64,000 bases of DNA, taken from assembly GCF_963921235.1 (NCBI RefSeq), contig NC_086097.1, positions 173,788,001 to 173,852,000 of the forward strand, read 5' to 3'. Origin of the DNA: Mobula hypostoma. Lineage: Eukaryota. The notes under the pieces were generated by a model, which was not told where the DNA came from, searched no databases, and was given only the letters and a program-made list of their open reading frames with translations. The position numbers and the translations under genes were made by a program. This document shows, piece by piece, positions 8,607 to 62,385 of this stretch (within the stretch, counting starts at the first letter, position 1; each line of letters opens with the position of its first letter).

Positions 8607-10088
8607 TAGAAACATAGAAAACCTACAGCACAATACAGGCCCTTTGGCCCATAATGCTGTGCCAAACATATATTTACTTTAGAAATTACCTAGGGTTACC
8701 CATAGCCCTCTATTTTTCTAAGCTCCACATACATATCCAGGAGTCTCTTAAAAGACCCTATTGTATCCGCCTCCACCACAGTCGCCTGCAGCCCATTCCA
8801 TGCACTCATCACTCTCTGCGTAAAAACTTACCCTTGACATCCCCTCTGTAACTACTTCCAAGCACCTTAAAACTGTGCCCTCTCATGTTAGCCATTTCAG
8901 CCCTGGGAAAAAGCCTTTGACTATCCACATGATCAATGCCTCTCATCATCTTATACATCATCATCAGGTCACCTCTCATCCTTCTTCACTCCAAGGAGAA
9001 AAGGCTCTGTTCAGTCAACCTGACGAAGGGTTCCAGCCCGAAACATCAACTGATCTTTTCCACTGATGCTGCCCGACCTGCTGAGTTCCTCCAGCGTGTT
9101 GTGAGTGTTGTTCAGTCAACCTATTCTCATAAGGCATGCTCACCAATCCAGGCAACATCCTTGTTAATCTCTTCTGCACCCTGTCTATAGTTTCCACATT
9201 CTTCCTGCAGTGAGGTGACTAGAACTGAGCACGGTACCCCAAGTGGGGTCTGACCAGGGACCTATACAGCTGTAACATTACCTCTCAGCTCTTGAACTCA
9301 GTCCCATGGTTAATGAAGGCCAATGGACGGTATGCCTTCTTAATCACAGTCAACCTGCGCAACAGCTTTGATGTCCTATGGACTCGGACCCCAAGATCCT
9401 CCACACTGCCAAGAGTCTTACCATTAATACTATATTCTGCCATCATATTTGACCTCCCAAAATGAACCACTTCACACTTATCTGGGTTGAACTCCATCTA
9501 TCACTTCTCAGCGCAGTTTTGCACACCACTGGTCACCAACCTCCATGCAGAATATGATCTGTCTACAACCACTCTTTGCCTTCAGTGAGCAAGCCAATTC
9601 TAGATCTTCAAATCAAAGTCCCCTCGGATCCCATGCCTCCTTACTTTCTCAATAAGCCTTGCATGGAGTACCTTATCAAATGCCTTGCTGAAATCCATAT
9701 ACACGACATCTACTGCTCTACCTTCATCAATGTGTTTCATCACATCCTCAAAAATTTCAATCAGGCTCATAAGGCATGACCTCCCTTTGATAAAGCCATG
9801 CTGACTATTCCTAATCATATTATGCCTCTGATAAATCCTGCCTCTCAGGATCTTCTCCATCAACTTAACAACCACTGAAGTAAGACTCACTGGACTATAA
9901 TTTCCTGGGCTATCTCTATTCCCTTTCTTGGAAAAGGGAACAACATCTGCAACCCTCCAATCCTCCGGAACCTCTCCCATCCGCATTGATGATGCAAAGA
10001 TCATTGTCAGAGGCTCAGCAATCTCCTCCCTCACCACCCACAGAAACCTGGGGTTTATCTCGTCCGGTCCCGGTGACTTATCCAACTC
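8607..10088 (-). mobile_element. CR1 LINE, 5'-truncated (RT domain plus 3' tail)
   Basis: Motifs KSPGPD..VPEDWRVA..QHGFIKGRSC..VYMDFSKAFDKV and MEFNPDKCEVVHFG; tail tagaaacatagaaa. Confidence 0.9.
9022..9108 (+). mobile_element. 87-bp Penelope-like terminal insertion with hammerhead core, 14-bp TSD
   Basis: Direct repeat tgttcagtcaacct at 9008-9021 and 9109-9122. Core CTGACGA-A-GGGTTCCAGCCC-GAAAC-ATC from 9020; the first two core bases overlap the left repeat. Confidence 0.8.
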
Positions 10089-10799
10089 GATTATTTGTTT
10101 ACATTTTTATTGATTGCACGATTTGTCTTTTTCGCACATTGGATTCTTGACAATACTGTGTGTGGTTTTTCATGGTGATTCTGGACTCTAACCCTAACCC
10201 TAATGCGTGGCTGCCTGCAAGAAGAGAAAGCTTAAGATTGCATTTGGTTTACATACTTCGATAATAAATGTACTTTTAACTTTACATCCTATCCAAAGGA
10301 ATCCTCTCCAAGAGCTTCCCAACCAGTGACGTGAGGCTCACTGATGTATAGCTTCCAAGATTAATTACTCAAATATTTAACCATCTACAAATACAGAAAA
10401 TAGCTACTCAGTATTCCAAAGAAGAGGGTAAAACATGACTCAAGAAATGTAATTATGATCCTTTATCTCTATTAGTAAAATTTCAGTTTCAGTGCTGGGA
10501 TCTACAACTGAAAATTTCCAATCTCTTTGCTTTTTTTCACTTTTTGGCTATTAGTGACAACACCAGTTGATAAAAACACCCCTGTGACAACTATTCCAGA
10601 AAAGGCTCAAGAAACACAAGAGACTGCAGATACTGTTATTTGGAGCAAGAAAGTAAATTGCCTGAAGAACTCAGTGTTTCAAGCAGCACAAGTGGAGGAA
10701 ACAGAATAATCAATTATCACTTCGCCTCCACAGACTCTACTTCTTCAGTTATGTTCTTCTAGCAGTTAATTTTCTGCTCCATTAAAGATACAGCTCGGA

Positions 10800-11527
10800 A
10801 TCAACACCAAGCAACATAAATTGTTTGGATGGATTGTGGGGTCGTGAAAGAAATAGTATACAGCCATGTATCCTTCATGGGAACGTCTTTGCTGCCAGCT
10901 TGCCATCACATGGTTTCCAGATTTGTTTTCAAGCTTCTTGATTTGGATCTTCTGAGGGACCCCAGGTACTCACGTTCGATTAACTGCTTCTTCCACCGCG
11001 TTCTACATGCCACGCTTTCCACCATGAGGGGGTACATGGTGTCCCTATCCCAGTCACTTCCACAACTCCGGGATCCTCTCTTTGCTGCCTGTAATGGATC
11101 TGTCCACTACTTTATCCTCCGCTGGATCCACACTTTCAATCACTGATTCTTTGACTTTCTTATCGCCTGTCCATCACCTCTCTCTGGTGCTCCTCCTCCC
11201 TTTTCTTTCTTCCATGGCCTTCTATCCTCTCCTATCAGACTCCCCCTTCTCCAGCCCTGTATCTCTTTTACCAATCAACTTTCTAGTTCTTCAGTTCACC
11301 CCTCCCCCTCCCGGTTTCACCTATCACCCTGTATTTCTCCTTCTCCTTCCCCCACCTTTTAACTCTGCCGCTCATCTTTTTATTTTATCCAATCCTGCTG
11401 AAGGGCCTTGGCCCAAAATGTCAAATGTACTCTTTTCCATCGATGCTGCCTGGCCTGCTGAGTTCCTTCAGCATTTTGTGTATGTGCTGCTTGGATTTCC
11501 AGCATCTGCAGATTTTCTCGTTTGTGA
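10800..11527 (+). mobile_element. Penelope-like element fragments (internal piece plus 3' terminal repeat with degenerate hammerhead at 11390-11427)
   Basis: Pyrimidine-rich 3' region and terminus matching the GIY-YIG-bearing copies at 18519 and 47250. Confidence 0.7.
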
Positions 11528-11720
11528 AATAATACAGACTTTCTATTTTCAATCACTTTCCATTAGCTCCTACTGAAAATGCAGATATTAAAATACTAGG
11601 ATCAGAGATGTGCATCAAGGAATTCAAGAGTACCAGTCAATAACTACAATACAACCTCAAGAACCCCGATCATTAAGGCTTTACTGATTTGTGAACTTTG
11701 CTGTGTTCAGTTTTGGATAC

Positions 11721-12551
11721 TGTGACAAGAATTCACATAGATTAAGATGTAGCTGTCCTGTGCTGGCACCGGTGGGATCAGCAGTTGGTCTGCCACCTAT
11801 CTTCAGGAGAGAGAGAGATAAGGAAAACAATGGAGCAGCATTTGGAGATGTTAATGAATTTGGAGAGCTGGCAAGAGCGGCTCCCCCTTTGAACCCTGAA
11901 CTGTTTGAAGTGATGGACAGGCGATACCCCAGCAGGGGGATAAAAAGGGACAGGTTTGCTAAGGCAACACACACACGACACCCGAGGTAACGAGACCCTG
12001 GGAGCGGTGCGCCTCTCACAAGTCGGTGGGAAGTACCGGGCCATAACCGCACAGGGTGGAAAGGCACGATCGGCAGGAACCTGGTGTGTGTCCACCCTTG
12101 CCTGGGTGCCAGGTTCAGCGCCTGGAAACGATCATATCTGGAAACGGAGGGGTCATGGTCGGTGACCTCAGATGACATCACAAAGGACTCGCCCAAAAGC
12201 TGACTGCGAAGGTCTGTCTGGAAACCTTGAATATTCATTCGTTTTGCTCTCTCTCTCCTTCCCCCACTGTCCATCGCCACGGCAGCGATTACTGCGAACT
12301 GAACTGAACTTTGCGTCACTTTGAAACTGGTCATTTACCCCTAGACAACGATAGAGCTTGATTAATCCTGTTATCTTAATTCTGTGTACATGTGTGTTTA
12401 TCATTGCTGAACTGTTGCATTTATTATCCTTTTGATTAGAGTACTGTGTTGCTTGTTTCTTTAATAAAACTTTCTTAGTTCTAGTAATCCAGACTCCAAC
12501 TGAGTGATCCATTTCTGCTGGTTTGGCAACCCAGTTACGGGGTACGTAACA
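11721..12551 (+). repeat. 5' LTR (831 bp)
   Basis: TGTGACAAG...GTACGTAACA, with AATAAA near the 3' end. Differs from the 3' LTR by roughly 18 substitutions and 4 indels, counted by eye. Confidence 0.95.
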
Positions 12552-12555
12552 GAAG

Positions 12556-12581
12556 TGCGGTTCTCGTCCACGATTTTGAAC
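12556..12581 (+). promoter_or_regulatory. Degenerate tRNA-Pro primer-binding site
   Basis: tgcggttctcgtccacgattttgaac lies 4 nt after the LTR and resembles the tRNA-Pro complement TGGGGGCTCGTCCGGGATTTGAAC. Confidence 0.65.
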
Positions 12582-12683
12582 GCTAAATTTGGGACGGAGT
12601 AAATTGATTGGGTCAAAATTTCCAAAAGAAAGAAAAGACAAACAGCAGAAACGGAGGCTGAGGAATTTATAAAGGCGCCGACC

Positions 12684-15900
<3,217 letters not shown>

Positions 15901-16005
15901 TTCAAACTCGCTGTATTAGCCAAATAGCTGATAAAGATGTATATTTGTGTGTGTATCAAATAATGTATTCATGTTTGTAATTTTTACCCCCCGGTAAAAA
16001 TCCTT

Positions 16006-16018
16006 AAAGGGGGGAAAG
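16006..16018 (+). promoter_or_regulatory. Polypurine tract
   Basis: aaaggggggaaag immediately before the TG of the 3' LTR. Confidence 0.9.
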
Positions 16019-16867
16019 TGTGACAAGAATACACATAGATTAAGATGTAGCTGTCCCGTGCTGGCACCGATGGGATCAGCAGTTGGTCTGCCACCTATCT
16101 TCAGGAGAGAGAGAGATAAGGAAAACAATGGAGCAGCATTTGGAGATGTTAATGAAGGAAGGAGAGCTGGCAAGAGCGGCTCCCCCTTTGAATCCTGAAC
16201 TGTTTGAAGTGATGGACAGGCGATACCCCAGCAGGGGGATAAAAAGGGACAGGTTTGCTAAGGCAACACACACACGACACCCGAGGTAATGAGACCCTGG
16301 AAGCGGTGCGCCTCTCACAAGTCGGTGGGAAGTATCGGGCCATAACCGCCCAGGGTGGAAAGGCACGATCGGCGGGAACCTGGTGTGTGTCCACCCTTGC
16401 CTGGGTGCCAGGTTCAGCGCCGGGAAACGATCGTATCTAGAAACGGAGGGGTCATGGTCGGTGACCTCAGATGACATCACAAAGGACTCGCCCGAAAGCT
16501 GACTGCGAAGGTCTGTCTGGAAACCTTGAATATTCATTCGTTTTGCTCTCTCTCTCCTTCCCCCCACTGTCCATCGCCACGGCAGCAATTACTGCAAACT
16601 GAACTGAACTAAATTGAACTGAACTTTGCGTCACTTTGAAACTGGTCATTTACCCCTAGACAACGATAAGAGCTTGATTAATCCTGTAATCTTAATTCTG
16701 TGTACATGTGTGTTTATCATTGCTGAACTGTTGCATTTATTATCCTTTTGATTAGAGTACTGTGTTGCTTGTTTCTTTAATAAAACTTTCTTAGTTCTAG
16801 TAATCCAGACTCCAACTGAGTGATCCATTTCTGCTGGTTTGGCAACCCAGTTACGGGATACGTAACA
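16019..16867 (+). repeat. 3' LTR (849 bp)
   Basis: Direct repeat of 11721-12551 with three extra GAACT-like units. Confidence 0.95.
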
Positions 16868-18034: not shown

Positions 18035-18165
18035 GACAAGGAAGCCTGCAGATGCTGGAAATCTTAAGCAGCACACATAAATGCTAGAGGAACTCAGCAA
18101 GGGCAAGCAAGGAATAAACAGTTGACATTTCAGGCCAAGACCCCTTAAGAACTGGAAGGGAAAGG
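18035..18165 (-). mobile_element. Old Penelope-like terminal fragment with a destroyed hammerhead core
   Basis: Matches the PLE terminus at 18519-18660. Confidence 0.65.
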
Positions 18166-18518: not shown

Positions 18519-19331
18519 AACGCAAACACGAGGAAATCTGCAGATGCTGGAATTTCAAGCAACACACATACAAGTTGTTGCTGAACGCAGCAGGCCAGGC
18601 AGCATCTCTAGGAAGAGGTACAGTCGACGTTTTGGGCCGAGACCCTTCGTCAGGACTAACCGAAAGAAGAGCTAGTAAGAGATTTGAAAGTGGGAGGGGG
18701 AGGGGGAGATCCAAAATGATAGGAGAAGACAGGAGGGGGAGGGATGGAGCCAAGAGCTGGACAGTTGATTGGCAAAAGGGATATGAGAGGATCATGGGAC
18801 AGGAGGCCTAGGGAGAAAGACAAGGGGGGGGGGAGATCCCAGAGGATGGACAAGGGGTATAGTCAGAGGGACAGAGGGAGAAAAAGGAGAGAGAGAGAAA
18901 AAGAATGTGTGAATATAAATAAATAAATAATGGATGGGGGACAAGGGGGACGGGGGGGCATTAGCAGAAGTTAAAGTCGTCAATGTTCATGCCATCAGGT
19001 TGGAGGTTACCCAGACGGAATATAAGGTGTTGTTCCTCCAACTTGAGTGTGGCTTCATATTTACAGTAGAGGGGGCCGTGGATAGACATATCAGAATGGG
19101 AATGGGACGTGGAATTAAAATGTGTGGCACAGAGAGTGGTGAATCTGTGGAATTCTCTGCCACAGCAAACTGTTGAGGCCAGTTCATTAGCTATGTTTAA
19201 AAGGAAGTTAGATATGGCCCTTGTGGCTACAGGGGTCACGCCAATATATAGAAGGCCGCATCGGGAGCACCAGATGCAGTATATCACCCCAGCCGACTCA
19301 GGTGAAGTGTCGCCTCACCTGGAAGGACTGT
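18519..19331 (-). mobile_element. Penelope-like element, 5'-truncated: GIY-YIG endonuclease C-terminal part plus terminal repeat
   Basis: IYCIWCSRCGLLYIG..HFNSTSH..LEEQHLIFRLGNLQPDGMN is a PLE GIY-YIG signature. Hammerhead motif at 18621-18658; CR1 patch at 19128-19238. Confidence 0.9.
18621..18658 (-). ncRNA. Minimal type I hammerhead ribozyme motif (G12A mutant)
   Basis: Minus strand reads tagtc-CTGACGA-A-gggtctcggccc-AAAAC-GTC-gactg. Stems I and II pair; GAAA is changed to AAAA. Confidence 0.75.
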
Positions 19332-19662: not shown

Positions 19663-19695
<33 letters not shown>

Positions 19696-21270: not shown

Positions 21271-22376
21271 GTAATGCAAATAAAGGAGGCATAATCTAAA
21301 TGTAACTGCCACATGAACTCCTTTAGATTCATCCCAGCAAAAGATATTTCTACAACAGAAAACTGACTTGTTTTTTCTCTTTCCAAGTTCTGACAAAGCT
21401 ATTACACTTTTCGACAAAAGCAGCCTAACTTGCTGAGAGTTTCCTAAGTGTTCTGTTTTTGTTATGCTTCATCAATATTTTTACTAATCAACTGCATGAA
21501 CACCAAATCAAATTATTAACCATATTTTAAAATAGAGAATGCTTTTGACTTTTGATTAATGCATGTCTGCAAAGAATTTGCAAAATAATTAAATGAGCAT
21601 CTATTCCCTAAGCCTCCCCAAAAACACAGCCATTATAACTCCTTTTTCCCTCTGCAGGTTTAGTTAGTTTTCTCGCACTGAACTCTAATAACATAGGCAA
21701 GTGCATGATGCCAATTTAATACCAATGTCATTCTACATACACTACACAAATGATCCAAGGACAGTTGGTTTTAACCAGTCTTAAGTATTTGACCTGGTAG
21801 TCTTCTATATGCATATAAATTTCAATGGTAAAAGTACACAATTTTTTTTTAAATCAATGCTAAAGATCAGAGACCAATTTTCACACGATTATACTGACCT
21901 GGTGAGTATGGTCAGCTTATGGTTTTGATTTCAGAATTTCAGTACATTGCTTTAAATGCAGGGGAACAGGAGTTGTGAATAACGTGAATGCCTTGATTTA
22001 GTTCGTCAGCAATTACTTATACTTAGCGTATTGTACCTACTTTCCGTTGAACTGATATTGAGCCAAAGGAAGAAAGATGAGACCACGTAGATATTGGTTT
22101 TAAGGAATGTCAACAGGAAGAAAGGAGAAGCAATTCTGAAGCTGAAGATCTTGCTGCCAACCGCGATATGAAAAAAAAGGAGTGAGAAGTTTGGTGGTAC
22201 TTCAGGAGATTATCACCCTAGCTTAAAGGACTTCAACAGGCTACAGCATTACACTTCTAAATATAATATTAATGCCTAATGTAAAGCAATCGCAATTTCC
22301 ATCTATATTAGCATATCTAATTACTGGAGGTCACCTATGTCAAATAGTTGTCTACTACTGCCTGGTTCTCACAAAC

Positions 22377-22651
22377 CTTGAAAGTGACAGTTGCTTTGGT
22401 GCAATAGAATCCAACAGAGACCACTGGATCCTTGGGAGGCAATGATCTCAGATGATTTACTTTAATGCCATTTTCGTCGACTTCATGGTTCCCATCACCC
22501 TCATCAGAATAACTGACCAGTGCAGGAACAAGGGACCATGCCCAAGACACCCATCCTTGATCATCATCTTGATGCTGCAAAAACTGTTGAACATCAGCAT
22601 TCTGGTACAGGGTTCCATGTTGCCCTTGAATCCCTGCTTCAGATTCACCAC
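22377..22651 (-). CDS. VPS13B: VPS13B internal coding exon (equivalent to human exon 8), 275 bp, phase 1/0
   Basis: Translates ...QHQDDDQGWVSWAWSLVPALVSY...KDPVVSVGFYCTKATVTFK, matching recalled human QGWVSWAWSFVPAIVSY...KDPIVSIGFYCTKATVTFK. Acceptor gtgtctctccag|GT, donor AAG|gtttgt. Confidence 0.95.
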
Positions 22652-25119: not shown

Positions 25120-25830
25120 TACAGGTGGAGCAATCTGGAAGTCAAATAGAAAATTACATGCACAAAATGCTGGAGGTACTCAGCAGGTCAGGCAGCATAT
25201 ATGGAGAGGAATAAAGATTCGAGTTTTGGGCCAAGACCCTTCATCAAGACTGGAAAAGAAGCCAGAATAAGATGGTGGGGTGAGGGGAAGGTGTACAAGC
25301 TGGAAAGTTTATAGTTGAAGCCAGATGAGAGGGAAGGCAGGTGGGTAGGGGAAAGGGAAGGAAGAGGGGGACCAAAAGAAGATAGGCAGATGAGAAGAGA
25401 AGGGGTAAGAAGAGAGTCAGAATGTAGAATGGAAAAGGTGAGAAGGAAGAGAAATTACCAGAAACTGGAGAAATCGATGTTCATGTCGTTAGATGGAGGT
25501 TACCCACACAGAATTGCTCCTCCAAATTGAGGGTGGCCTCATCATGGCATAGAGGAGAATAGAAATATTCTGAATAGGAATGGGAGTAGAATTAAACTGG
25601 TTGGCCACTGGGAAATCTTCTCTGTTGCAGATGGCGCCAAAGTGCTCAAGAAAGCCATCGCCCAATCTATGAAAGGTATCATCGATGTAGAGCAGAACGC
25701 ATTGGAAACACTGGATACAGCAGATTACCCCAACAGACTTGCAGGTGAAGTGTTGCCTCACCTGGAAGGACTATTTGGTGAGGAAAGAGGTGAATGGGCA
25801 GGTGTAGCACTTGTACCACTTGCAGGGATG
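25120..25830 (-). mobile_element. Penelope-like element (GIY-YIG remnant plus terminus with degenerate hammerhead at about 25215-25252)
   Basis: RQHFTCKSVGVICCIQCFQCVLLYIDDTFHRLGDGFLEH..PVANQFNS. Confidence 0.85.
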
Positions 25831-26469
25831 AATGCTAGCATTCAAAATGAGGATGATAAAAGAATGCAAGATTTAAATTTATAGTTATTTTAGTGAGGCT
25901 AACGAAAGAACTCCAAATAATTTTGGCCAACATATTTAGGAAGGGGTATATTTGCACTGGAAGCAATGCAGAGAAGATCAGCTAGTTTGAATCTTAAAAT
26001 GAAAAGATTGATATACAGGTTATACCTATACTCAGAGTACAGTACAAAGAGAATGACAATATTAAACATACAATGTTCTGAGAGGATGAACAGGTGGATA
26101 TCAAGCTTTCCCTTGAAGGGATTTCTCAAACTAAGGGACATAATTTCAGAAATATGAGTTACTATTCAGGCAGGTGATGAGGTGGATTTAGATTTTTCTC
26201 TGTGGATCCTGATTCCCTGAAATTTGAAATTCAGAGACTGAGGGTAGGTTGGGGGCTTGTGATTTGTGCACAGTATCCCAACACTGTCAGACAGGCAGGA
26301 AAATTAATCTGAGGCAATTCATTTTCTCAACAACTCCGAAAATTTATGACTCTTCATCTCAATCTTAAATGGGTGATTCCGTATTCTGAAACTATACCAC
26401 CTAATCTGGATTCCCCTGGATTTCCAATCCATTTGTTTACCTTCAACAAATTTACTTGATTCCTTCACC

Positions 26470-42305: not shown

Positions 42306-43570
42306 TTCCCAGTGGCCAAACATTTTAATTCCGAATCCATTCCGACTTGTTGGTCCATGGCCTCCTCTTATGCCACCTTGAGGCCACCCTCAGGGTGGAG
42401 GAACAACACTTTATAGGAAAGATTTTAGCATCAATGAAGCATTGGCTGATTGGCAGGAGGTAAAGAGTGGGAATAACTTTTACTGGTCGGCTGCCGGTGA
42501 CTAGTGGCATTCCACAGGAGTCTGCGTTGGGACCGATTCTTTTTACAACATATGTTAATGATTTGGATAAAGGTGGAATTGATAGTTTTGTTGCAAAGTT
42601 TGCAGATAATATGAAGATAGGTCAAGGGGCAGGCAGTTTTGAGGAAGTACAGAGGCTACAGAAGAACTTAGAGAGATTAGGAGAATGGGCAAAGAAATGG
42701 CAGATGGAATAGTGCAGGAAGTGTATGGTCATACGCTTAGTAGAAGAAATAAAAGGGTTGATCATTTTCTAAATGTACAAAAGACTGAGGCACAAAGGGG
42801 CTTGGGACTGCTTGTGCAGGATTCCCTAAAGGTTAATTTGCAGGTTGAGTCTATGGTGAGAAAGGCAAATGCAACCTTGGAATTCATTTCAAGAGGACTA
42901 GAATGTAAAAGCAAGGACGTAATGTTGAGACTTTATAAAGCACTGATGAGGCCTCACTTGGGAGTATTGTGAGCCGTTTTGGGCCCTTTATCTTAGAAAG
43001 GATATGCTGAGGTTGAAGAGGATCAAAGAAGGTCCACGAAAATGATTCCAGGATTGAACGGCTTGTCATATGAACAGCATCTGATAGTCTGGGCCTCTAT
43101 TCACTAGAATTCAGAAGAATGAGGGTGACCTCATTGAAACCTATCAAATAGTGAAAGGCCTTGATAGAATGGATGTGGAGAGGATGTTTCGTACGGTGGG
43201 AGAGTCTAAGACCAGAGGACACAACCTCAGAATAGAGAGGCATCCTTTTAGAATGGAGATGAGGAGGAATTTCTTTAGCCAGACAGTTGTGAACTGTGGA
43301 ATTCTTTGCCACAGGCATCAATGGAGGCCAAGTTTTAATGTATATTTAAGGCAGAGTTTAATAGATTCTTGATTGGTCAGGGCATGAAGGGATACAGGGA
43401 GAAGGCAGGAGATTTGGGCTGAGAGGAAAATTAGATCAACAATGATGAAATAATGGAGCAGACACGATGGGCTAAATGGCCTAATTCTGCTCCTATATCT
43501 TATGGTCTTATATTCCGTCTGGGTAGCCTCCAACCTGATAGCATGAATATCGATTTTTCCTTCTGATAAA
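42306..43570 (+). mobile_element. Penelope GIY-YIG C-terminal fragment (42306-42415 and 43509-43570) split by a CR1 insertion
   Basis: PVAKHFNS..VHGLL..LRVEEQH stops at 42415 and resumes as IFRLGSLQPDSMNIDF after 43508. Confidence 0.8.
42416..43508 (+). mobile_element. CR1 LINE 3' part
   Basis: VTSGIPQESALGP..KFADNMK..LYKALMRPHL; tail tcttatggtctta. Confidence 0.9.
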
Positions 43571-45665
43571 TGTTTATCATAATTAAAGATATTCCTTACC
43601 CTCAACATTGAGGAGAACCAAAGGAACGACTTTTCAAAGTACAATAATATCTCTGGTTGCTCCAAGGGTCACATAACATGTCAATGAATACTTTGTGCCA
43701 ACTAGACCACAGTCATTAATTGTTAGATTTGTCAAATTTCTCAGATTATTTTAGCCATTTGTAAAAGAAAATGAAATACCAACTTGCCAAATTTAATGAT
43801 AGGGCTATTCTCATCAAAAGAAAGTTGGAAGACAACATAGCTCATGTGTAGTAACTATTTAGATGATAACTATAAAATCAGCAAGAAAGAATTCAGCACA
43901 AATTATGGTCATCAAATTAGAAAAAAAAATGTACTCCCATTCGAAGCTATCAAGTCATTACATCTTGTTAGAAAAGTATGCACAATGTAGTGATATTTCA
44001 AGGGTCAACATGAACAGTACATTAAAGATTTGCTTAGTAAAAAGTATTAAGCCCAATCCAAATTAGCTCTCTTAGCAAAACTCATTTTAACAGATGTGGC
44101 TGCTCAATTCAGGGTCAAATACCCAAAAAGATACTAGCTGTCAGAACTAATTTAGTTCTACTCAAAAGTAGCTGTGGATAGCTGCTATTTCATCCTAATT
44201 GGTTTTACTTAGTTTAACTGATTGCTTAGTTAAGTCAGTCACCTATGCGGCAAACACGAGCAGCATCTTTATCTTTTTCCTGATCTAGTGAATGCAAATT
44301 TTAGATCAATTTCAGCTGTCTAACAGATGTTAGTCACACAAATGTTGCAAAATATCAAGTATAATTCTGGCTTCTTAAACTTACTCCACAAGTAAATGGG
44401 ATGACCACAGTAAAGGTTGTTTAGAAATGTTTCATCCATCCTGCTGTTCCAAGTCAAATGGTTTTATGGGCATGATAATGAGCCAATTAAGTTGTCTTAT
44501 CTAACACAGTCAGTATTCGTTTAATTTTATCTTTTGGTTGTCTGCCTAATAGAATCACCTCAGATTACAAATGAGCAATCATTCCTCTTGCTGTGTGCTT
44601 TTAGTTAATGTCTGACACAGGGCTGCCCTTTTTTCTATATTCACTTTAAATTTATTCTGGCTACAGTTAAAATCAAAATTCAAGTTACTCCTCCACACTT
44701 GCATTTTCCAATGAGGATTTTAAATGTTCCATACAATTTACTGCTATATCCACTGCATTAGTGTACTGTGTTACTGGTTTATGTCTCACAGCAGAGTTTT
44801 TTTTTATTAGACTGCTATACAAGCTCGACAAACTCCTACCACTCATCGTCTCACATTTATATAGCACCTTTAGAGTAAACACACCACAGTGTCTTAAAAA
44901 GGCGAAAAATAAGTGCCAAGTAGTAATAAAAGAATAAAGGGAATCTTAATCTAAGAGACAGATTTTGAGCAGACCTTGAAAATAGAAGAAAGTATAAGGT
45001 AGAAAAGTTAAGGAGAATTTCAAAGTTAGAGACTTTGCAAGAATATGATTTTCAAAATAGATTAAAGGAAAGCGTGGAAATGTAAACTTAGCAGAGATAT
45101 GCAAACTGTCAGGAAAATGGAAAAAAATTGTTGGTCTTTCAAAGAACCAGCACAGCTAGGTATCGGCAGTGCCACTATTATTCTGAGATCCTCTGCTGCA
45201 AAGCAAGTTGTATTCTATCAGGAGAAGATTTTAGGAGGAAAGTGGGCAAAATTCTAGATATCATTTGCAAATGTATAAATAGATTTTAGAAGGAATAGGT
45301 GTAAAATAAAAAGAACAGAAAGGGTTGGACATCCATATGAATAGCTATATTAAAGTCAGTGATTGTAAATAGTTTCAATGTGCTTTAAGAACACCTTTTC
45401 CCGACAGTAGCTCTGAATAACCTTACATCCTTTTGAGGGAGCCATTTGCCTTATACATCACACAAAAGCTAAATATCTCAACTGCAGGAGATCCGATATA
45501 AAAACTGAAAATATTGAGGACACTCAGCTGAAGAGAGAAACGGTGTTAATGTTTCAAGTTCACCAGTATCTTCAACACAAAATACTCTGCAGATACTGGG
45601 GTCAAAGCAACACTCACAACACGCTGGAGGGACTCAGCAGGTCGGGCAGCATCCATGGAAACGAT

Positions 45666-45703
45666 CAGTCACCGTTTCGAGCCGGAACCCTTCGTCAGGA
45701 CTG
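45666..45703 (-). ncRNA. Minimal type I hammerhead motif, non-canonical GGU triplet
   Basis: Minus strand reads cagtc-CTGACGA-A-gggttccggctc-GAAAC-GGT-gactg. Confidence 0.7.
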
Positions 45704-45783
45704 AAGAGGGAAGGGGCAGAGGCCCTATTCTCCTTCCCACACTCTCCCCACCTTCTTTATAGGGCCTCTGCCCCTTCCCTCTT

Positions 45784-45821
45784 CAGTCCTGATGAAGGGT
45801 TCCGGCTCGAAACGGTGACTG
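45784..45821 (+). ncRNA. Minimal type I hammerhead motif, non-canonical GGU triplet
   Basis: cagtc-CTGATGA-A-gggttccggctc-GAAAC-GGT-gactg. Confidence 0.7.
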
Positions 45822-46849
45822 ATCGTTTCCATGGATGCTGCCGACCTGCTGAGTTCCTCCAGCGTGTTGAGTGTCACCAGTATCTTCCAAGCTTTTTAAA
45901 TACTTAAACTGTAATGTACCATTACAATCTATTCAAAATAAAATGCTTCATATGTCGTGTGTTTATAATTACTAGGTCCACACATGAAGTTCACAGTGAG
46001 CCAAAGAACAGCACAGAAGCAGTCCTTTAGGCCCAACTGGTCCATGTCAAACAAGGTGACCATCCAAGCTAGTCCTATAACTGTAAACCTTTCCTATCAA
46101 AACACTACAAGTCAACAGCACATGTCTACCTTGTAAGATTCTTAGGTTAGAATTATGAGCAAGTCTATCAATCAACTAATGTATCTAGTAAGAAAACTTT
46201 TAGCAAGGCCAGTTAACTTTGCCTGAGCTTTTAAGAAGTTAGAAATCTGATCAGTGGATCTAAATTTACAAAGCAGAATGTGATCAAGTTAAAAAAAAAA
46301 GCAGAAAATAAAACTGGCTACTTTAGATACAGCTTTGAATGCCACAATGACAATCATTCAAAGGGAAGCTAACAGGAAAATCAGACCTAATTCCTTGATG
46401 CTGTTTCATCAGTTTATCCAAGCAAAGCACCAGCATAATTCAGTTGACCCATCTCAGTCAAATACACTAAAGACACAAGCACATAGTAAGATCATACTCC
46501 ACCACAGTACAGAGGAAGTTTCCAAAGTACAGTAAATGAGACAATTAACTTTGTCTGCCTGTTCTAATCAGCCATTTAAACATCTATGAAACATCTATAA
46601 CAGAATATCTTCAAAAACACTCCATCATCATTAACTATCACCAAAAAAAATCCTAGATTATTATCAAATCTTCATTATTTCTTTTAATCCATAATATTAT
46701 TCTGATGTATCTTGCTACATTCAGTCCATGACATCCTGAGGAACTGTACACAAAACTTTATAACTAATACATAATTTCCTCTTTTTCACACGCCATCTTT
46801 CCAGGTAAGGCGACAAAGATTAATTTTCTTTTTTTTCATCAGTTCTTGG

Positions 46850-48200
46850 TTTTCAGTGATTTGTTCACTTGGACATCCAAAGTAATGCTACACACAGAAG
46901 TGACTGTACATAAAGTGATTTGAGAGAAAATGATAAAGTAATGGTGGCTGGGGGTATGAAGGAGTGGAATGGTGGGTGGAGGTGTTGATCAGCATTACTG
47001 CTTGGGGAAGGTAACTTTTTAAAGTCTGGCAGTCCTAGTGTGGATGTGACACAGTCTTCTCCCTGATGAGAGTGCAACAAACAGTCCATGAGCAGGGTGG
47101 CTGGGACCTTCATGATGTTACAAAACCTCTCTGTACATACATCCTTTATGGCAGGTAGGCTGTTGCACCTGTGCATCTGTAGAATGGTGCAAGTATTAAT
47201 GGGCATAGTCCAGCTATCTTCAGCCTTCTCAGAGACTAACAACATTGGTGCACTTCCCATTCCAATTCCAATATGTCTATCCATGGCCTCCTCTACTGTC
47301 GTGATGAGACCACACTCAGACTGGAGGAACAACATCCTATTTTCCATCTGGGTAGCCTCCAGCCTGATGGCATGAACATCAATTTCAGGAACCTCAGGTA
47401 ACACCCCCTCTCCTTCACCATTCCCCATCCCATTCCCATCTCTCACCTTATCTCCTTGCCTACCCCTCCCCTCCCTCTGGTGCTCATCCCCGCTTTTCTT
47501 TCTTCCATGGCCTTCTATCATCTCCTATTAGATTCCCCCTTATGCAGCCCTATATTTCTTTCACCAATTAACTTCCCAGCTCTTTACTTTACCCCTCTCC
47601 CTCCCTGTTTCACCTATCACTTTGGGTTTCTCCCTCCCTTCCCCCCACCTTTTAACTACACACCTCATCTTTTTTCCTCCAATCCTGCTGAAGGGTCTTG
47701 GCCCGAAATGTCGACTGTACTCTTCTCCATATTTGCTGCCTGACCTGCCGAGTTCCTTCAGCATTTTGTGTGTGTTGCATTGGTGCACTTCCCTGATTTC
47801 CACTGCTGTGCCATCCATGTAAAGAGTGGTGTGAGTGGTCCGAGTTCCTCGGATAATTAATTCCTTTGTCTTGTTGACATTGAGGCAAGGATTATTTTGG
47901 CACCAGGCCTCGAGCTCCACTCTGTAGGTCATCTCATTATTGGTGATGAGCTCCACCACAGTCTTGTCTTTGGCAAACTTAACAACATGATTACTCGGGT
48001 GATTGGCCATGCAGTCATTGTGAGCAGAGTGTACAGTGATGGGGTCAGTACACAGTCCTCTGGGGCAGCCGTGTTGACAATGATAGGGGAGGAGGAGCCG
48101 TGTGCATCCTGATTATTCTGAGGTCTGTTGGTTCAGAAGGCCAATACCCAGTTGAACAGTGGTGTATTTAGACTAAGGAGTAGGGGTTTGTTCACCACGT
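46850..48200 (-). mobile_element. Old Rex1/Babar-type LINE interrupted by the PLE at 47250-47780
   Basis: SNHVVKFAKDKTVVELITNNEMTYR..WCQNNPCLNVNKTKELII at 47800-48010; 3' part at 46850-47245. Confidence 0.7.
47250..47780 (+). mobile_element. Penelope-like element 3' fragment (GIY-YIG C-terminus plus terminus with hammerhead at 47680-47717)
   Basis: MSIHGLLYCRDETTLRLEEQHPIFHLGSLQPDGMNINF; caatc-CTGCTGA-A-gggtcttggccc-GAAAT-GTC-gactg. Confidence 0.85.
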
Positions 48201-48214
48201 CTGTGGGACAAAGG

Positions 48215-51190
48215 CTGAATCAAGGTGGTGATGAATTAGCATACAAAAGGGAGACTGAAAATCTGGCTGAATGGTGCTGTAACAACAACCTCTTACTCAA
48301 TGTCAGCAAGCCGAAGAGCTGATTATTAACTTCAGTAGGAGGAAACTGGAGATCCATGAGCCAGTCCTCAACAGGGGATCAGCAACTTTAAATTCCTTTG
48401 TGTTATCATTTCAGAGGACCTGGCCTGGGTCCAGCACATAAGTGCAATTACAAAGAAAGAACAGCAGTACCTCTACTTCTGCAAAGATTCGGATGATATC
48501 TAAACCTTGGACAAACTTCTGCAGATGTGTAGTACAAAGTATACTGACTGGTTGTATCACAGCCTGGTATGGAAATACCAAGGCCCTTGAATGGAAAATC
48601 CTACAAAAAGTAGTAAATATGGCATCACAGGTAAAGCCCTCCCCACCATTGAGCACATCTACATAGAGCCCAGTCGCAGGAAAGCAGCATCTATCATCAG
48701 GGATCCCATCAGCCAGGTCATGCTCTCTTCTCGCTGTTACCATCAGGAAGAAGGTACAAGAACCTTTGGAATCAAACCATCAGATTCAGGAATAGTAATT
48801 ACCCCTCAAACATCAGGCTCTTGATCCAGAGGGGATAACTTCACTCGCCCCCATCACTGAACTGCTTCCACAACCTAAGGATTCACTTTCAAAGACTCAT
48901 CTCATGTTCACAATATTTCTTGCTCGCTTGCTTGCTTATTTATTTATTTATTTATTTATTATCATCGTCAACAAGGGAAATTAGGGATAGTATCAATTCC
49001 AAAGAAGAAGCATACAAATTAGCCAGAAAAAGTGGCTCACCTGAGGACTGGGAGAAATTCACAGTCCAGCAGAGGAGGACAAAGGGCTTAATTAGGAAGG
49101 GGAAAAAAGATTATGAGAGAAAACTGGCAGGGAACATAAAAACTGACTGTAAAAAGCTTTTATAAATATGTGAAAAGAAAAAGATTGGTTAAGACAAATG
49201 TGGGTCCCCCACAGACAGAAACAGGTGAATTGATTATGGGGAGCAAGAACATGGCAGACCAATTGAATAACTACTTTGGTTCTGTCTTCACTAAGGAGGA
49301 CATAAATAATCTTCTGGAAATAGTAGGGGACAGAGGGTCCAGTGAGATGGAGGAACTGAGGGAAATACATGTTAGTAGGAAAGTGGCGTTAGGCAAATTG
49401 AAGGGATTAAAGGCAGATAAATCCCCAGGGCCAGATGGTCTGCATCCCAGAGCGCTTAAGGAAGTAGCCCAAGAAATAGTGGATGCATTAGTGATAATTT
49501 TTCAAAACTCTTTAGATTCTGGACTAGTTCCTGAGGATTGGAGGGTGGTTAATGTAACCCCACTTTTTAAAAAAGGAGGGAGAGAGAAACCGGGGAATTA
49601 TAGACCGGTTAGCCTAACATCGGTGGTGGGGAAAATGCTAGAGTCAGTTATCAAAGATGTGATAACAGCACATTTGGAAAGCAGTGAAATCATCGGACAA
49701 AGTCAGCATGGATTTGTGAAAGGAAAATCATGTCTGACGAATCTCATAGAATTTTTTGAGGATGTAACTAGTAGAGTGGATAGGGGAGAACCAGTGGATG
49801 TGGTATATCTGGATTTTCAAAAGGCTTTTGACAAGGTCCCACACAGGAGATTAGTGTGCAAACGTAAAGCACACGGTATTGGGGGTAAGGTATTGATGTG
49901 GATAGAGAATTGGTTGGCAGACAGGAAACAAAGAGTGGGAATAAATGGGACCTTTTCAGAATGGCAGGCAGTGACCAGTGGGGTACCGCAAGGCTAAATG
50001 CTGGGACCCCAGTTGTTTACAATATATATAATGACTTAGATGAGGGAATTAAATGCAGCATCTCCAAGCTTGCAGATGACACGAAGCTGGGCGGCAGTGT
50101 TAGCTGTGAGGAGGATGCTAAGAGGATGCAGGGTGACTTGGATAGGTTAGGTGAGTGGGCAAATTCATGGCAGATGCAATTTAATGTGGATAAATGTGAG
50201 GTTATCCACTTTGGTGGCAAGAACAGGAAAACAGATTATTATCTGAATGGTGGCCGATTAGGAAAAGGGGAGGTGCAACGAGACCTGGGTGTCATTATAC
50301 ACCAGTCATTGAAAGTGGGCATGCAGGTTCAGCAGGCAGTGAAAAAGGCGAATGGTATGCTAGCATTCATAGCAAGAGGATTCGAGTACAGGAGCAGGGA
50401 GGTACTACTGCAGTTGTACAAGGCCTTGGTGAGACCACACCTGGAGTATTGTGTGCAGTTTTGGTCCCCTAATCTGAGGAAAGACATCCTTGCCATAAAG
50501 GGAGTACAAAGAAGGTTCACCAGATTGAATCCTGGGATGGCAGGACTTTCATATGATGAAAGACTGGATCGACTAGGCTTATACTCTCTGGAATTTAGAA
50601 GACTGAGGGGGGATCTTATTGAAACATAAAATTCTAAAGGGATTGGACAGGCTAGATGCAGGAAGATTGTTCCCAATGTTGCGGAAGTCCAGAACGAGGG
50701 ATCATAGTTTGAGGATAAAGGGTAAGCCTTTTAGAACCGAGATTAGAAAAAACTTCTTCAGACAGAGAGTGGTGAATCTGTGGAATTCTCTGCCACAGGA
50801 AACAGTTGAGGCCAGTTCATTGGCTATATTTAAGAGGGAGTTAGATATGGCCCTTGTGGGTAAAGGGATCAGGGGGTATGGAGGGAAGGCTGGTACAGGT
50901 TTCTGAGTTGGATGATCAGCCATGATCATACTGAATGGCGGTGCAGGCTCGAAGGGCCGAATGTCCTACTCCTGCACCTATTTTCTATGTTTCTATGTTT
51001 CTATCATTGTGATTTTTTCTTTCTTTTTGTATTTGCAGTTTTTTGTATTTTGTGCACTGTGTCTCTACCCTGTTGGTATTTCATTGATTCTATTATGGTT
51101 ATTGGATATATTGAGTACGCCCACAAGAAAATGAATCTCAGAGTGGTATGATGACATATATGTAGTTTGATAATGAATTTACTTTGAATG
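48215..51190 (+). mobile_element. Rex1/Babar-type 3' fragment (48215-48960 and 51005-51190) split by a CR1
   Basis: GDELAYKRETENLAEWCCNNNLLLNVSK; FCRCVVQSILTGCITAWYGN; the 3' UTR resumes after the CR1 tail. Confidence 0.8.
48971..51003 (+). mobile_element. CR1 LINE, 5'-truncated, young (RT domain nearly intact)
   Basis: ORFs 49170-49997 and 49898-50629 (QHGFVKGKSCLTNL, YLDFQKAFDKV, GVPQG, LADDTKL); (TTTCTATG)n tail. Confidence 0.95.
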
Positions 51191-52176: not shown

Positions 52177-52315
52177 TAAACACGAGGAATTCTGCAGATG
52201 CTGGAAATTCAAGCAGGACTGACGAAGCGTCTCGGCCCGAAACGTCGACTGTACCTCTTCCTAGAGATGCTGCCTGGCCTGCTGCGTTCACCAGCAACTT
52301 TGATGTGTGTTGCTT
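52177..52315 (+). mobile_element. 139-bp Penelope-derived insertion (inverted tip plus hammerhead-bearing terminus) with 13-bp TSD
   Basis: TSD gatatctatattg at 52164-52176 and 52316-52328. Confidence 0.85.
52219..52251 (+). ncRNA. Hammerhead core with intact conserved nucleotides; 5' strand of stem I lost by truncation
   Basis: CTGACGA-A-gcgtctcggccc-GAAAC-GTC-gactg; one stem II mismatch. Confidence 0.7.
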
Positions 52316-58125: not shown

Positions 58126-58166
58126 CATTCAATGGAAAAGATATTTATAAAGGAGAAGAAGCAAGG

Positions 58167-58414
58167 GAACTTCACAGTTCTTTACTTCATCCCTCCCCCT
58201 CCCAGTTTCACCTATCATCTGGTGTTTCTTTCTCCCCTCCCCCCACCTTTTAAATCTACCCCTCAGCTTTTTCTCTCCAGTCCTGCTGAAGGGTTTCGGC
58301 CTGAAACGTCGACTGTACTTTTTTTCCATAGATGCTGCCTGGCCTGCTGAGTTCCTCCAGCATTTTGTGTGTGTTGCTCGGATTTCCAGCATCTGCAGAT
58401 TATCCCTTGTTTGT
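58167..58414 (+). mobile_element. Penelope-like terminal repeat
   Basis: Near-copy of 11270-11527 and 47570-47780. Confidence 0.8.
58278..58315 (+). ncRNA. Minimal type I hammerhead motif, CUGCUGA (A6C) variant with complete stems
   Basis: cagtc-CTGCTGA-A-gggt-ttcg-gcct-GAAAC-GTC-gactg. Confidence 0.7.
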
Positions 58415-58806: not shown

Positions 58807-58879
58807 TCTTTTTTTTCACATTTGCCTAAGAGAAACATTAGCAAACAAATGGACAGTAAATAGCCCTCAAATGTAAAAA

Positions 58880-59330
58880 GTCATAAAGCCATAAAACATG
58901 GAAACAGCCCCTTCAGCCCAAATGGTCTATGCCAACCGAAATTCAAATCTGAACTAGTATCCATCACCTATCCACGTACTTGTTCAAGTTATTTTTAAAT
59001 ATTGCTCATGCCTTAAGCACATCATCTGGCACCTCCTTCCACATACTGACCACACTCTTGAGTGAAAATGTTGCCTCCAAATTCCTATTAAGTGTCTGCC
59101 CCTCACCCTATCTTCTCTAGTTCTTAATTTTTCAACCCTGGAAAAGTCTGTGTGCACTCCCCCTGTCTATGCCCCTCATGATCTTATACATCTCCGTAAG
59201 ATCACCCCTCGTTCTCCTATGCTCTAATAAATAAAATCTCAACATGCTCAACCTCTCTTCATAAGTCAGTTCCATGAGTCCCAGCAACCTCTTCGGAAAT
59301 CTTCTCTGCATTCTTTCCAGCTAAATGGAA
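58880..59330 (-). mobile_element. CR1 3' fragment, degraded
   Basis: Similar to 4581-5050. Confidence 0.7.
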
Positions 59331-60099
59331 ATCAAAACAGCTGCCAATACGTGAAAATCTGAAGTAACAGGGAATGATGAAGGGCCTTTGACCAAAACAC
59401 ATTATCTGCTCCTCTTTCTACAAATTATGCTTGACTTGCCAAGTGTTTCTAAAATTCTCTATTTTTATTTCTGCCCTTAGTAGTATTTTCTACATTAGGA
59501 TAATTCACTAGAAATAGTTGTTCTACACTTCTCTTCCTTCATTTGTTACCAATTATATCCTCCATACATCTATCTCCTCCGGACTCAATCTTCCAATGCT
59601 TTTCTGGTGTGATCCCCATACTCCACTAAGATCAGTTTATTCGATGCAATAGTATGAGATTACAAGGCAAAGTAAAATAACATGTCCAGCAGCTGGAACA
59701 GAATGAGCATTTCAGAGAAAACTAAGTCATAATGTCTAATTTTCCAATTATAATTCCATGTTAACTTCAAAAAGTATTTTGCAATACACAGTGTCTTATT
59801 ATTGTGTTATGATACCCTGCTGACCTCAAATATCACATTAATTAACTGATAAATTTGAGGGATTTTTAAGCTGTTCTCATTCCACTGAGAACTAGATGGA
59901 AGACAGCCAGAACTCTTTGTACTTGTGATCCTTAATAGCCACTTATTGAAGCTAAATTTAACACCATGCCTTTGAATAAATAGTTTTGCAAGCCATTATA
60001 ACAATTAGTGTGGAAAAACATAAACAGAAACCAATAATTCTGAACTGTTGGCTCATCTCCATTGTTTCAAAATGACAACTGGCAAGTGGGAATCTTTTA

Positions 60100-61680
60100 A
60101 GTCAGAATTAATATCAGTTCAGAACCAGCATGTTTCCAGTAACAGTGAAGGACAAAGATGGCAAGATTAGGGATTCTTGGATGACAATGAATGTTGAAGG
60201 TTTGATGAAGCATATAGTGGGTCTAGGAACTGGCATCAAGGGGATCTCTTGAGATGTTAGATAAAACTTAAAAAAATAAATTAGGAGGGCAAAGGGGGGC
60301 TATAAAATTTTCTTGGTAAGTAAGGCTGAGGAGAATCCCAAGACATTTCATATGTATAACAGAAGTCATAGTCATACTTTATTGATCCCGAGGGAAATTT
60401 GCTTTCGTTACAGTTGCACCAACCAAGAACAGTATAAATATAGCCATATAAAACCATAAATAATTAAATAATAATATGTAAATTATGCCAGGAAATAAGT
60501 CCAGGACCAGCCTATTGGCTCAGGGTGTCTGACCCTCCAAGGGAGGAGTTGTAAAGTTTGATGGCCACAGGCAGCAATGACTTTCTATGACGCTCGGTGT
60601 TGCATCTCGGTGGAATGAGTCTCTGGCTGAACGTACTCCACTTGGGAACCAAAGAGAGTAATGTACGTGTAGTGCCTGGTAATCTGGGAAATGTCCTAAA
60701 TGCTTCTCATATTTTCCTGTATTTGTCAAGGAAAAGGACGTGGAATACATTGACTTCAAGGAGAGGTACATGGAAAATGTATCCTTAACAAAGAATTTTT
60801 CCAATATCTAGGACAAGGCAGTGTTAAGGAGAAAATGTAAACTGTCATATGATACATAAGGGTTGATAAATCCCAAGGGCCACATGACATCTATCACAGA
60901 TTGTTACGGAAGGAAAGGGAGCAGCTAGCTTGAAAGTGAATGCTGGGCTCTGATGGATATTTTTGCACCTCTGTTAATCATAGATGAGATGCCAAAGACT
61001 TCTGGATTATTTATGTTGTTCCTTTACTCAACAATGGCAGCAGGGATAAAGCCAGGTAACTACAAGCCAATGAGCCTTACATCAGGGGTAAAGAAATTAT
61101 TGAAGAAAATCCTAAGGAATAAGATTTATGTACAGAGAAGCTAGAAAGTTTGTGAACCTTGTATAATTTTCTATATTTCTGTATACATATGACCTAAAAT
61201 TTGATCAGATCTTCACCCAAGTCCTAAAACTAGATAAAAAGAACCCAATTAAATAAATAACACAAAAAAAAATTATAATTGTTCGTTTATTCATTTCAGG
61301 CTTTGTGTAGGAGAAAACCTGCCTCAACAATTTGAGTGAGTTTTTCGATGAAAGCAGGATAGTAAAAGGACTTTAGTAAGGCATTTGACAAGGTCCTATA
61401 TAGCGGGCTAGCAAAGAATGCAGGATTTTTGACAAAGGAGTTAATTAATCCAAAAATGCTTTGGCAATAAGATGCAGAGGGTGATTGTGGAAGGGTACTT
61501 CTCTGATTGGAAATCTGTGAGCAGTCATGTACTACAGGAATTGGTGCAGGGACGCTTCTTGTTTTTTAATATTTATTAACAAACTGACTGCGGGAAGTGT
61601 GATCAGTCACTTTGTAGATGGTGCAAACGTTAAGCGTTATTGTGGAAAGCACAGAAGGTTATCAAAGGTGAGAGCAGGAT
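60100..61680 (+). mobile_element. Old CR1 ORF2 remnant hosting a Rex1 3' end (60365-60640, minus) and a Tc1 terminal fragment (61133-61295)
   Basis: KPGNYKPMSLTSGV, FSKAFDKV-like and GLVQG-like remnants; (GTCATA)n tail; TA+cagagaagctagaaagtttgtgaac Tc1-type end. Confidence 0.65.
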
Positions 61681-62094
61681 AAGATTGGTTATTGATTTGT
61701 TATTGTTCCATATAGTGAGGTACAGTGAAAAGCTTGTCTTGCATAATGTTCATACAGATCAATTCATTTCACGGTGCACTGAGGTAGAACAAAGTAATGC
61801 AATACAGAAGCTGAATAAAGTGACAGTTAGAGAAAAAGTGGTGCAGGAAAAACAATAAAGGTGCAAGGCCATAACAAGGTAGACTATGAAGTCAAGAGTT
61901 CACTTTACCATCCCAGGTAACAATATAGCAGTCTTGTAACAGTGGAGTAGAAGCTGTCCTTAAGCCTTGTAATACACATTTTAAGGCTTTTGTATGTTTT
62001 GTTCAATGGAAGATAGAAGAAGAGAGAATGTTTGGGCTGAGTGAGGGCTTCAATTATACTTTCTGCTTTACTAAGACATCAAGTCCATGGAGGA

Positions 62095-62385
62095 GAACAC
62101 AAAATACTGGAAGAACTCAGCAGGTCAGGCAGCATCTATGTTCAATATTCCAGGCAAAGACCCTTCATCAAGATTGGAAAAGATAGAGGAAGAAGCCAAA
62201 ATACAGAGGTAAGGTGAGGGGAAGGAGTCTAAGCCAGCAGGTGATATGCAGCAGTTAGCGTGGCATAAATAAGTAAATAAATAGGGTGAGAGGGAAAGTG
62301 GGTGGGGGAGGAGGGACAAACTGAGAGGCAGAGAGATGATAGGTGAAAGAGGGAAGGGGCTGAAGGGAAGGAATCTGATGAGAGA
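62095..62385 (-). mobile_element. Old Penelope-like terminus with degenerate hammerhead (62139-62176)
   Basis: Similar to 25160-25400. Confidence 0.65.

Follow-up and report, generated by a model that had tools for sequence, protein, structure and literature searches.

The 64,000-nucleotide stretch of the Mobula hypostoma genome analysed here (contig NC_086097.1, positions 173,788,001 to 173,852,000; hereafter the window) lies in the gene VPS13B and holds 11 copies of a hammerhead-like motif, which are read as minimal type I hammerhead ribozymes in the terminal repeats of Penelope-like retroelements. The window copies are damaged, 5'-truncated and predicted to be inactive, and the intact source elements likely use the motif for a slow, probably protein-assisted cleavage as dimers, which is likely not required for each insertion; this reading is given a probability of about 0.85. 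Three of the copies belong to an old subfamily with cytosine in place of adenine at position 6 of the catalytic core (A6C, or C6 as opposed to A6). A more tentative proposal, put at somewhat below even odds, is that an autonomous lineage of these elements in the ray multiplied to tens of thousands with an A6C hammerhead unable to cut in Mg2+ (or cutting only with Mn2+ or protein) and then died out while the canonical-core lineage continued.

The first-pass annotation, made from the letters of the window, had listed 11 motifs with their positions and strands, and all of them were found there (Table 1). Ten lie within 15 mismatches over 39 nt of the copy at 18621, a threshold at which 10 Markov shuffles of the window gave a chance level of 0.1 per 64 kb, and the motif at 62139, which has an internal deletion, was recovered by a profile search (E=1e-18) that also added three partial element ends at 2808-2853 (-), 29722-29773 (-) and 59375-59455 (+). 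A chance origin was ruled out by the Markov shuffles together with reversed-sequence and descriptor controls. That no copy is fully canonical also holds, as a strict minimal-hammerhead descriptor found none in the window, where every copy is defective; the same descriptor found 24 canonical copies in 800 kb of other DNA of the genome and 0 in each of five Markov controls. The core CUGANGA ... GAAA ... UH is present at the family level, in the majorities of the A, BA and C groups, and in no single window copy. Rfam covariance models, scanned against the window only, gave 18 matches up to E=10, none of them to a hammerhead.

The architecture of the motif is that of the minimal type I hammerhead, as had been proposed. 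All six natural copies that were folded as monomers form stems I and II, an extra A between positions 9 and 10.1 is present in all four group majorities, stem III is the palindrome ACGU, and the G10.1-C11.1 pair is found in the BA, C6 and C groups, the youngest subfamily having G-U instead. A pattern with altered stem II length had only 76 genome matches, so the length of this stem is fixed. The consensus given in the first-pass annotation misses C6 in the older subfamily and U11.1 in the largest young subfamily. The latter is a second inherited variant, G10.1-U11.1, carried by 28 of 46 young copies. Its origin by CpG decay was rejected because UG and CA stand at 28:4 although the two strands should decay alike, and two other CpGs gave 6:2 and 3:4.

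Conservation was followed within the genome and among distant relatives, the latter being 80 metagenome loci of related elements at 32-62% identity. A descriptor that required stem pairing but neither the extra A, nor G10.1-C11.1, nor a palindromic stem III returned 11 CUGANGA hammerheads from these loci (10 on the coding strand) with unrelated but paired stems, as against 0-2 hits in shuffled and 1 in reversed sequence. The extra A, the G10.1-C11.1 pair and a palindromic stem III (ACGU, AAAUUU, ACGCGU or AAGCUU) are present in every one of the 11. Three additional hits have a U3-A8 core. A minimal hammerhead with this core, at position 6092 on the minus strand of metagenome locus L275, has a 6-bp stem II and the ACGU palindrome; the core is the variant reported for schistosome elements. 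Within the ray, the majorities of young A copies (17 copies) and older A6 copies (9 copies) agree at 35/38 motif, 274/326 coding, 59/77 tail and 152/295 rest-of-repeat positions, making the hammerhead the most conserved part of the element in this comparison. Taken with the relatives, these alignments show that selection on the source lineages keeps the motif.

What is selected may also be something other than catalysis, namely a structural or protein-binding signal beside the start of reverse transcription. The adjacent tail is likewise better conserved than the rest of the repeat (59/77 positions), the C6 lineage thrived, the largest young subfamily has G10.1-U11.1, and the published activity of such motifs is very low (PMC4209133). 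This explanation is nevertheless considered improbable, since in the distant relatives the conserved letters are exactly those of the catalytic core while the stems are wholly different, and core-dependent cleavage has been shown for a related element (PMC11167929).

The carrier of the motif was characterized from the protein-coding remnants. As annotated earlier, three of the window's copies follow GIY-YIG remnants (Table 1), and four window insertions are bounded by target duplications of 13-16 bp, one of the four being a fold-back pair and another having an inverted tail. Two further GIY-YIG fragments, at 42303-42424 and 43507-43560 (+), have no adjacent hammerhead. When the remnant at 18961-19314 was used as a query against the 3.48-Gb genome, 318,094 first-look candidates were returned, of which 150 were scored, and in all 16 fetched loci with a long open reading frame (ORF) the motif lies ~250-340 nt past the end of the endonuclease. 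One of these loci, L016, has the order GIY-YIG end, repeat, hammerhead, an ORF of ~3.3 kb with one frameshift, repeat and hammerhead; in this partial tandem the motifs at 2307 and 6036 flank ORFs at 2398-5738, so that both repeats carry the motif. It is the only one of the 16 with this arrangement, the other 15 being 5'-truncated or inverted. Pfam matches on three ORFs (RVT_1, E 2e-4 to 2e-6; GIY-YIG, E ~2e-3) are under the curated cut-offs. The nuclease of L016 has two cysteines between GIY and YIG and the motif GVIYCVWCSRCGLLYIG, as in endonuclease-containing (EN+) Penelope-like elements, and a CX4CxxC linker stands between reverse transcriptase (RT) and nuclease both in L016 and in the C6 majority, within the CX2-5CxxC form of Neptune. 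The first shared methionine of the element protein is found ~140 nt downstream of the motif. Among the relatives of this protein are shark and ray proteins at 67-92% and numerous others near 50%. Two annotated ray protein isoforms, P0117 and P0150, from a kinase-domain and a chitinase-domain gene, hold more than 400 residues of the element's protein, which reflects exonisation or an error of annotation.

Partial tandems, 5' truncation, inverted ends and target duplications, all of them traits of EN+ Penelope-like elements, occur here together, and the window insertions are ordinary Penelope-type truncated insertions, the 3' ends of 5'-truncated elements. From its linker motif, and given that the clades on record for vertebrates are Neptune and Poseidon, the carrier would be placed as Neptune-type, the linker being shared with Nematis. 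Craig et al. describe this cysteine linker as a mark of Neptune and Nematis, the C-terminal EN+ elements with which the ray element also shares the order of RT, linker and two-cysteine GIY-YIG, as well as pseudo-LTRs (LTR, long terminal repeat) and tandem and inverted insertions (bioRxiv 10.1101/2021.04.23.441226).

An origin of the motifs from a non-autonomous retrozyme or short interspersed element (SINE) family, rather than from the ends of autonomous elements, would suit the fact that most copies are short and without coding sequence, and animal retrozymes are reported to derive from Penelope repeats (Li et al., bioRxiv 10.64898/2026.07.22.740005). Such non-LTR retrozymes have hammerhead sequences related to Penelope repeats and are also described from one cartilaginous fish, but they are non-coding tandem units, whereas the ray copies are truncated ends of coding elements (bioRxiv 10.64898/2026.07.22.740005). 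The ragged 5' ends of the ray copies run into endonuclease or RT sequence while their 3' ends are shared, every short insertion is marked by a target duplication or inversion of its own, and in the window no head-to-tail array of short units was seen, the copies being dispersed ends of coding elements. This origin is therefore regarded as very improbable.

Every architectural feature of the first-pass annotation had already been published, in a study that mentions Neptune elements of fish by name (Cervera and De la Pena 2014, PMC4209133). Like the metazoan Penelope minimal hammerhead ribozymes (min-HHR) described there, the ray motif is of type I with a stem I of 4-5 bp, an extra base between 9 and 10.1, a G10.1-C11.1 pair and a palindrome at 15.2-16.2, and it occurs mostly as single dispersed copies with some inverted pairs and as several consensus families per genome. 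In fish, that source reports min-HHR in Xena, Poseidon and Neptune elements (PMC4209133). Stem II is 4 bp here, unlike the 7-8 bp of the schistosome families, and the core variant is A6C in place of U3-A8, the largest subfamily having G10.1-U11.1 (PMC4209133). The ray element also resembles PAc, a Poseidon element of Anolis, in the hammerhead at the repeat-ORF junction, the tails ending shortly downstream and the partial tandems (Frangieh et al. 2024, PMC11167929). PAc has its start codon in stem II and was tested biochemically (PMC11167929), whereas the ray element has the CX4CxxC linker. The core change CUGCNGA is shared with the C6 hammerhead of phage Bcep176 and with an engineered A6C mouse-gut hammerhead (PMC3088659, PMC7151607). 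Those are monomeric ribozymes at single loci, while C6 of the ray is inherited in thousands of retroelement copies as a minimal motif of dimer type.

The abundance of the system in the genome, which had been claimed together with its several subfamilies, is very high. Exact matches numbered 7,019 for a 34-nt pattern, 73,541 for a 29-nt intact-core pattern and 70,620 for a third pattern (young upstream context with A6), with 0 in the reversed controls. For density, 80 stretches of 10 kb were sampled (10 beside the window and 70 at round coordinates on seven large contigs), and the profile found 153 element ends in these 800 kb, 98 of them spanning the motif, with 0 in reversed sequence. This extrapolates to ~665,000 element ends (564,000-779,000) and ~104,000 descriptor-positive motifs (67,000-155,000) in the genome. 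The 73,541 exact matches compare with ~4,000 in coelacanth and ~9,000 in Xenopus by differing methods (PMC4209133), so that the ray genome, with at least 73,541 intact-core motifs, holds several times the vertebrate counts of that founding paper.

The copies at 11390, 47680 and 58278 belong to an old subfamily whose A6C core was inherited, and their C6 is not a product of decay. Exact matches with the upstream context of the older family number 3,933 for C6 and 1,942 for A6 (67% C6), whereas with that of the young family they number 146 and 70,620 (0.2% C6), which shows that C6 was inherited and rules out decay after insertion. When a C6 copy served as DNA query, 31 hits other than the query itself were fetched, and 30 of them have a terminal motif (21 C6, 8 A6, 1 U6). 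A second search, with a query ending before the motif, gave 29 loci, four of them overlapping the first set; 27 were readable (22 C6, 3 A6, 1 U6, 1 G6), with 23 cores read by script and 4 by eye. One coding site is T in 20/23 C6-group copies and in 0/8 A6 copies, and one tree has a clade of 13 C6 and 1 U6 copies with 94% support and 3 C6 copies outside. Clustering on tail sequence alone gave no separation of C6 from older A6 copies. The C6 copies differ by 11% from their own majority, as against 5% for the young group. In the unbiased sample 9 of 98 copies are C6, 7 of them in one tight group, which corresponds to ~30,000 genome-wide (12,000-63,000). The subfamily thus departs from the canonical core at position 6 and constitutes a core variant.

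The majority sequence built from 16 C6 copies has an open frame of 239 codons and includes the linker and nuclease motifs, so the C6 source likely encoded its own protein. On the short branch between C6 and the old A6 majority, 11 synonymous and 12 non-synonymous differences were counted. A descent of the young family from C6 with regained A6 may be considered but was not supported: a weakly supported ladder tree suggests it, the site patterns, read with three old outgroup copies, do not favour it (7 sites with C6 sister to old A6 and 4 with C6 sister to young), and mosaic copies suggest recombination. One C6 copy in the window, at 10832-11520, lacks RT and nuclease, its N-terminal coding sequence running directly into the terminal repeat, and no second copy with this junction was present among the fetched loci.

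In other hammerheads A6C lowers cleavage (PMC3088659), and one study reports a loss of orders of magnitude in Mg2+ with cleavage in Mn2+ spared (PMC7151607). By analogy, A6C is predicted to cripple self-cutting in the Penelope C6 subfamily. Since the C6 lineage spread although A6C sharply lowers Mg2+ cleavage elsewhere, hammerhead cleavage is likely dispensable for insertion, with the motif conserved over the long term. A literature search found no report of an A6C Penelope-like hammerhead, although the figures and one supplementary file of PMC4209133 lie outside its scope and the variant may be in print.

The proposed course of events begins with a tandem source locus, which would be transcribed across repeat, ORF and repeat. 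The two motifs of the transcript would pair through ACGU to form stem III and would cut after GUC, as the sequence and the literature suggest. The RT/GIY-YIG protein would nick DNA and begin copying a few dozen bases past the hammerhead, as the ends of the copies and work on the lizard element indicate (PMC11167929). Such a start just past the hammerhead would account for the presence of the motif in nearly every insertion, however short. Inserted copies then decay, often at CpG, while selection on the source lineages maintains the motif, yet one lineage reached ~30,000 copies with A6C. The inheritance of A6C is seen in the copies themselves, whereas its loss of activity would follow from the behaviour of other hammerheads. 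Cleavage may thus be unnecessary for each insertion and still be favoured over long times. Two published systems agree with this course: in the lizard element cleavage is protein-assisted and catalytic mutants still insert normally in vitro (PMC11167929), and Penelope-like hammerheads of the same architecture show weak dimer cleavage (PMC4209133).

Several results weigh against these readings. In ViennaRNA, a model without tertiary terms and hence weak evidence, the hammerhead dimer can form without a pseudoknot, yet its energy is -11.5 to -19.9 kcal/mol, whereas the most stable dimer structure reaches -24.5 to -34.1. Within a 180-nt context, the core is drawn into pairing with a pyrimidine tract upstream of it. 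Copies with A6 and C7 favour a helix in which the core (G5-G8) pairs with the cleavage site. As the active dimer is not top-ranked and the core pairs upstream, unaided cleavage looks unlikely in this model, a result that fits the low activity in PMC4209133 and the protein dependence in PMC11167929. Stem covariation, which had been named beforehand among the signs to look for, is invisible among the near-identical subfamily stems of this genome and is seen only in the distant relatives, where only 10 of the 80 loci yield a hammerhead. As for the C6 subfamily, trees built on coding sequence only are star-like, with weak support for C6 monophyly, and in the 20 loci that were extended, no full-length C6 element and no C6 element that has both repeats turned up, so that rescue by an A6 partner is possible.

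Such a rescue is part of a wider explanation, in which the elements cannot move without cleavage and cleavage was preserved in the C6 lineage, either by an A6 motif located in the other repeat or in an adjacent element on the same transcript, or by the protein or another metal such as Mn2+. A C6 copy can still give the GUC strand in a mixed dimer, and the C6 majority keeps the stems, the palindrome and GUC intact. In another hammerhead A6C leaves Mn2+ cleavage nearly intact (PMC7151607), and in ViennaRNA C6 abolishes the inactive helix formed by A6/C7 copies. The age of the C6 lineage (11% from its majority) would also agree with this explanation, the young burst having come from the A6 lineage. 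On the other hand, catalytic mutants of the lizard element insert normally in vitro (PMC11167929), paired C6 ends within one insertion are both C6 where seen (L103 and L177), and the linkage of C6 to coding changes points to more than one generation of sources. A strict requirement for cleavage is consequently held to be rather unlikely, and dispensability for the single insertion is preferred.

The host gene was identified correctly in the first-pass annotation as VPS13B on the minus strand. The 92-amino-acid product of one exon matches 97 proteins, of which the named ones are VPS13B or its Chorein N-terminal domain; the best identity is 82-84%, in rays, and among named proteins the closest are ray and shark VPS13B. 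The window does not reach the next 5' exon, and all 11 copies are thus in two introns. Use of the intronic copies by the host to process or regulate VPS13B pre-mRNA is barely credible: 5 of the 11 copies do lie on the transcribed strand, but none in the window is canonical, element ends over 164 kb of VPS13B show no strand bias (20 plus and 20 minus), and their density (14 ends in the 64-kb window) is about the genome average (153 ends in 800 kb). With average density, no strand bias and a very high copy number genome-wide, the location in VPS13B is incidental.

Table 1. Positions of hammerhead copies, associated element parts and VPS13B exons in the window.
Feature	Position	Strand	Remarks
VPS13B exon, next to the one at ~22373	1192-1287	-	
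Target duplication of 9020 insertion	14 bp at 9008 and 9109	.	
Hammerhead copy 9020	9015..9052	+	C-type subfamily; insertion begins at core, stem I 5' strand lost, palindrome broken
N-terminal coding remnant of element	10832..11164	+	Joined directly to terminal repeat (internal deletion)
Hammerhead copy 11390	11390..11427	+	C6 subfamily (CUGCUGA); also G12A, palindrome and stem I broken
Hammerhead copy 18119	18119..18156	-	Old; 2-nt core deletion
Hammerhead copy 18621	18621..18658	-	Young A subfamily; sole defect G12A, at a CpG
GIY-YIG remnant upstream of 18621 copy	18967-19299	-	64% to L016 long ORF
VPS13B exon	~22373-22651	-	Separates the two introns holding the copies
Hammerhead copy 25215	25215..25252	-	Old; C3U, G12A, broken cleavage site and stem I
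Linker and GIY-YIG remnant upstream of 25215 copy	25549..25860	-	
Fold-back insertion, two element ends in opposite orientation	45560..45887	.	14-bp target duplication at 45560-45573 and 45874-45887
Hammerhead copy 45666	45666..45703	-	C-type subfamily, fold-back left arm; U16.1 = G, no NUH cleavage site
Hammerhead copy 45784	45784..45821	+	Fold-back right arm; U16.1 defect as in 45666
5'-truncated element	47243..47793	+	Endonuclease C-terminus 47252-47395, terminal repeat, hammerhead, tail; flanked by 16-bp target duplications
Hammerhead copy 47680	47680..47717	+	C6 subfamily; palindrome AUGU, one stem I mismatch
Target duplication of 52219 insertion	13 bp at 52164 and 52316	.	
Hammerhead copy 52219	52214..52251	+	Young A subfamily; inverted tail replaces stem I 5' strand, one stem II mismatch
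Hammerhead copy 58278	58278..58315	+	C6 subfamily; stems, palindrome, GUC intact; non-canonical at C6 and U11.1 only
Hammerhead copy 62139	62139..62178	-	Old; C3U, A13G, deletion over stem I 3' strand

In the fold-back insertion at 45560-45887, non-consensus changes in stem II and the cleavage site are common to both arms, suggesting that the template was already mutated or that one arm converted the other. The window also holds elements of other classes. A Gypsy-like LTR element at 11715-16867 (+), with LTRs at 11715-12551 and 16013-16867 that are 95% identical, has a gag-like frame with SCAN and zinc-knuckle matches, split by a long GA/CA repeat; its pol region is shortened. A Tc1/mariner transposase frame of 296 amino acids at 62604-63494 (-) matches HTH_Tnp_Tc3_2, HTH_SB and DDE_3, and smaller Tc1/mariner remnants lie near 3450-4400. 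Translations revealed fragments of long interspersed elements (LINEs) with RT and endonuclease frames at 4644-6475, 9600-10106, 38917-41284 and 49092-50906, which we take to be of the CR1/L2 type. A near-perfect inverted repeat of ~140 nt at 34090-34230, resembling a miniature inverted-repeat transposable element (MITE), is the source of a chance match to mir-549, and the Rfam microRNA matches of the window are explained by the fold-back hairpins at 45.7 kb and 34.1 kb. The segment 35305-36527 is unmatched by other fetched loci and has open frames at 35526-35885 and 36237-36527 (+); the former had no match in Pfam, and the latter presumably resembles the end of a PNMA/gag capsid.

What role the hammerhead plays in Penelope elements is a question on which the C6 subfamily has a bearing, as the motif was dispensable in vitro in the lizard element (PMC11167929) and is yet conserved. 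The lineage offers a natural pair of A6 and C6 motifs for a side-by-side assay. If the proposed history of the C6 lineage is true, it would show, in nature and within one genome, that Penelope insertion can do without cleavage and that cleavage is yet selected in the long term.

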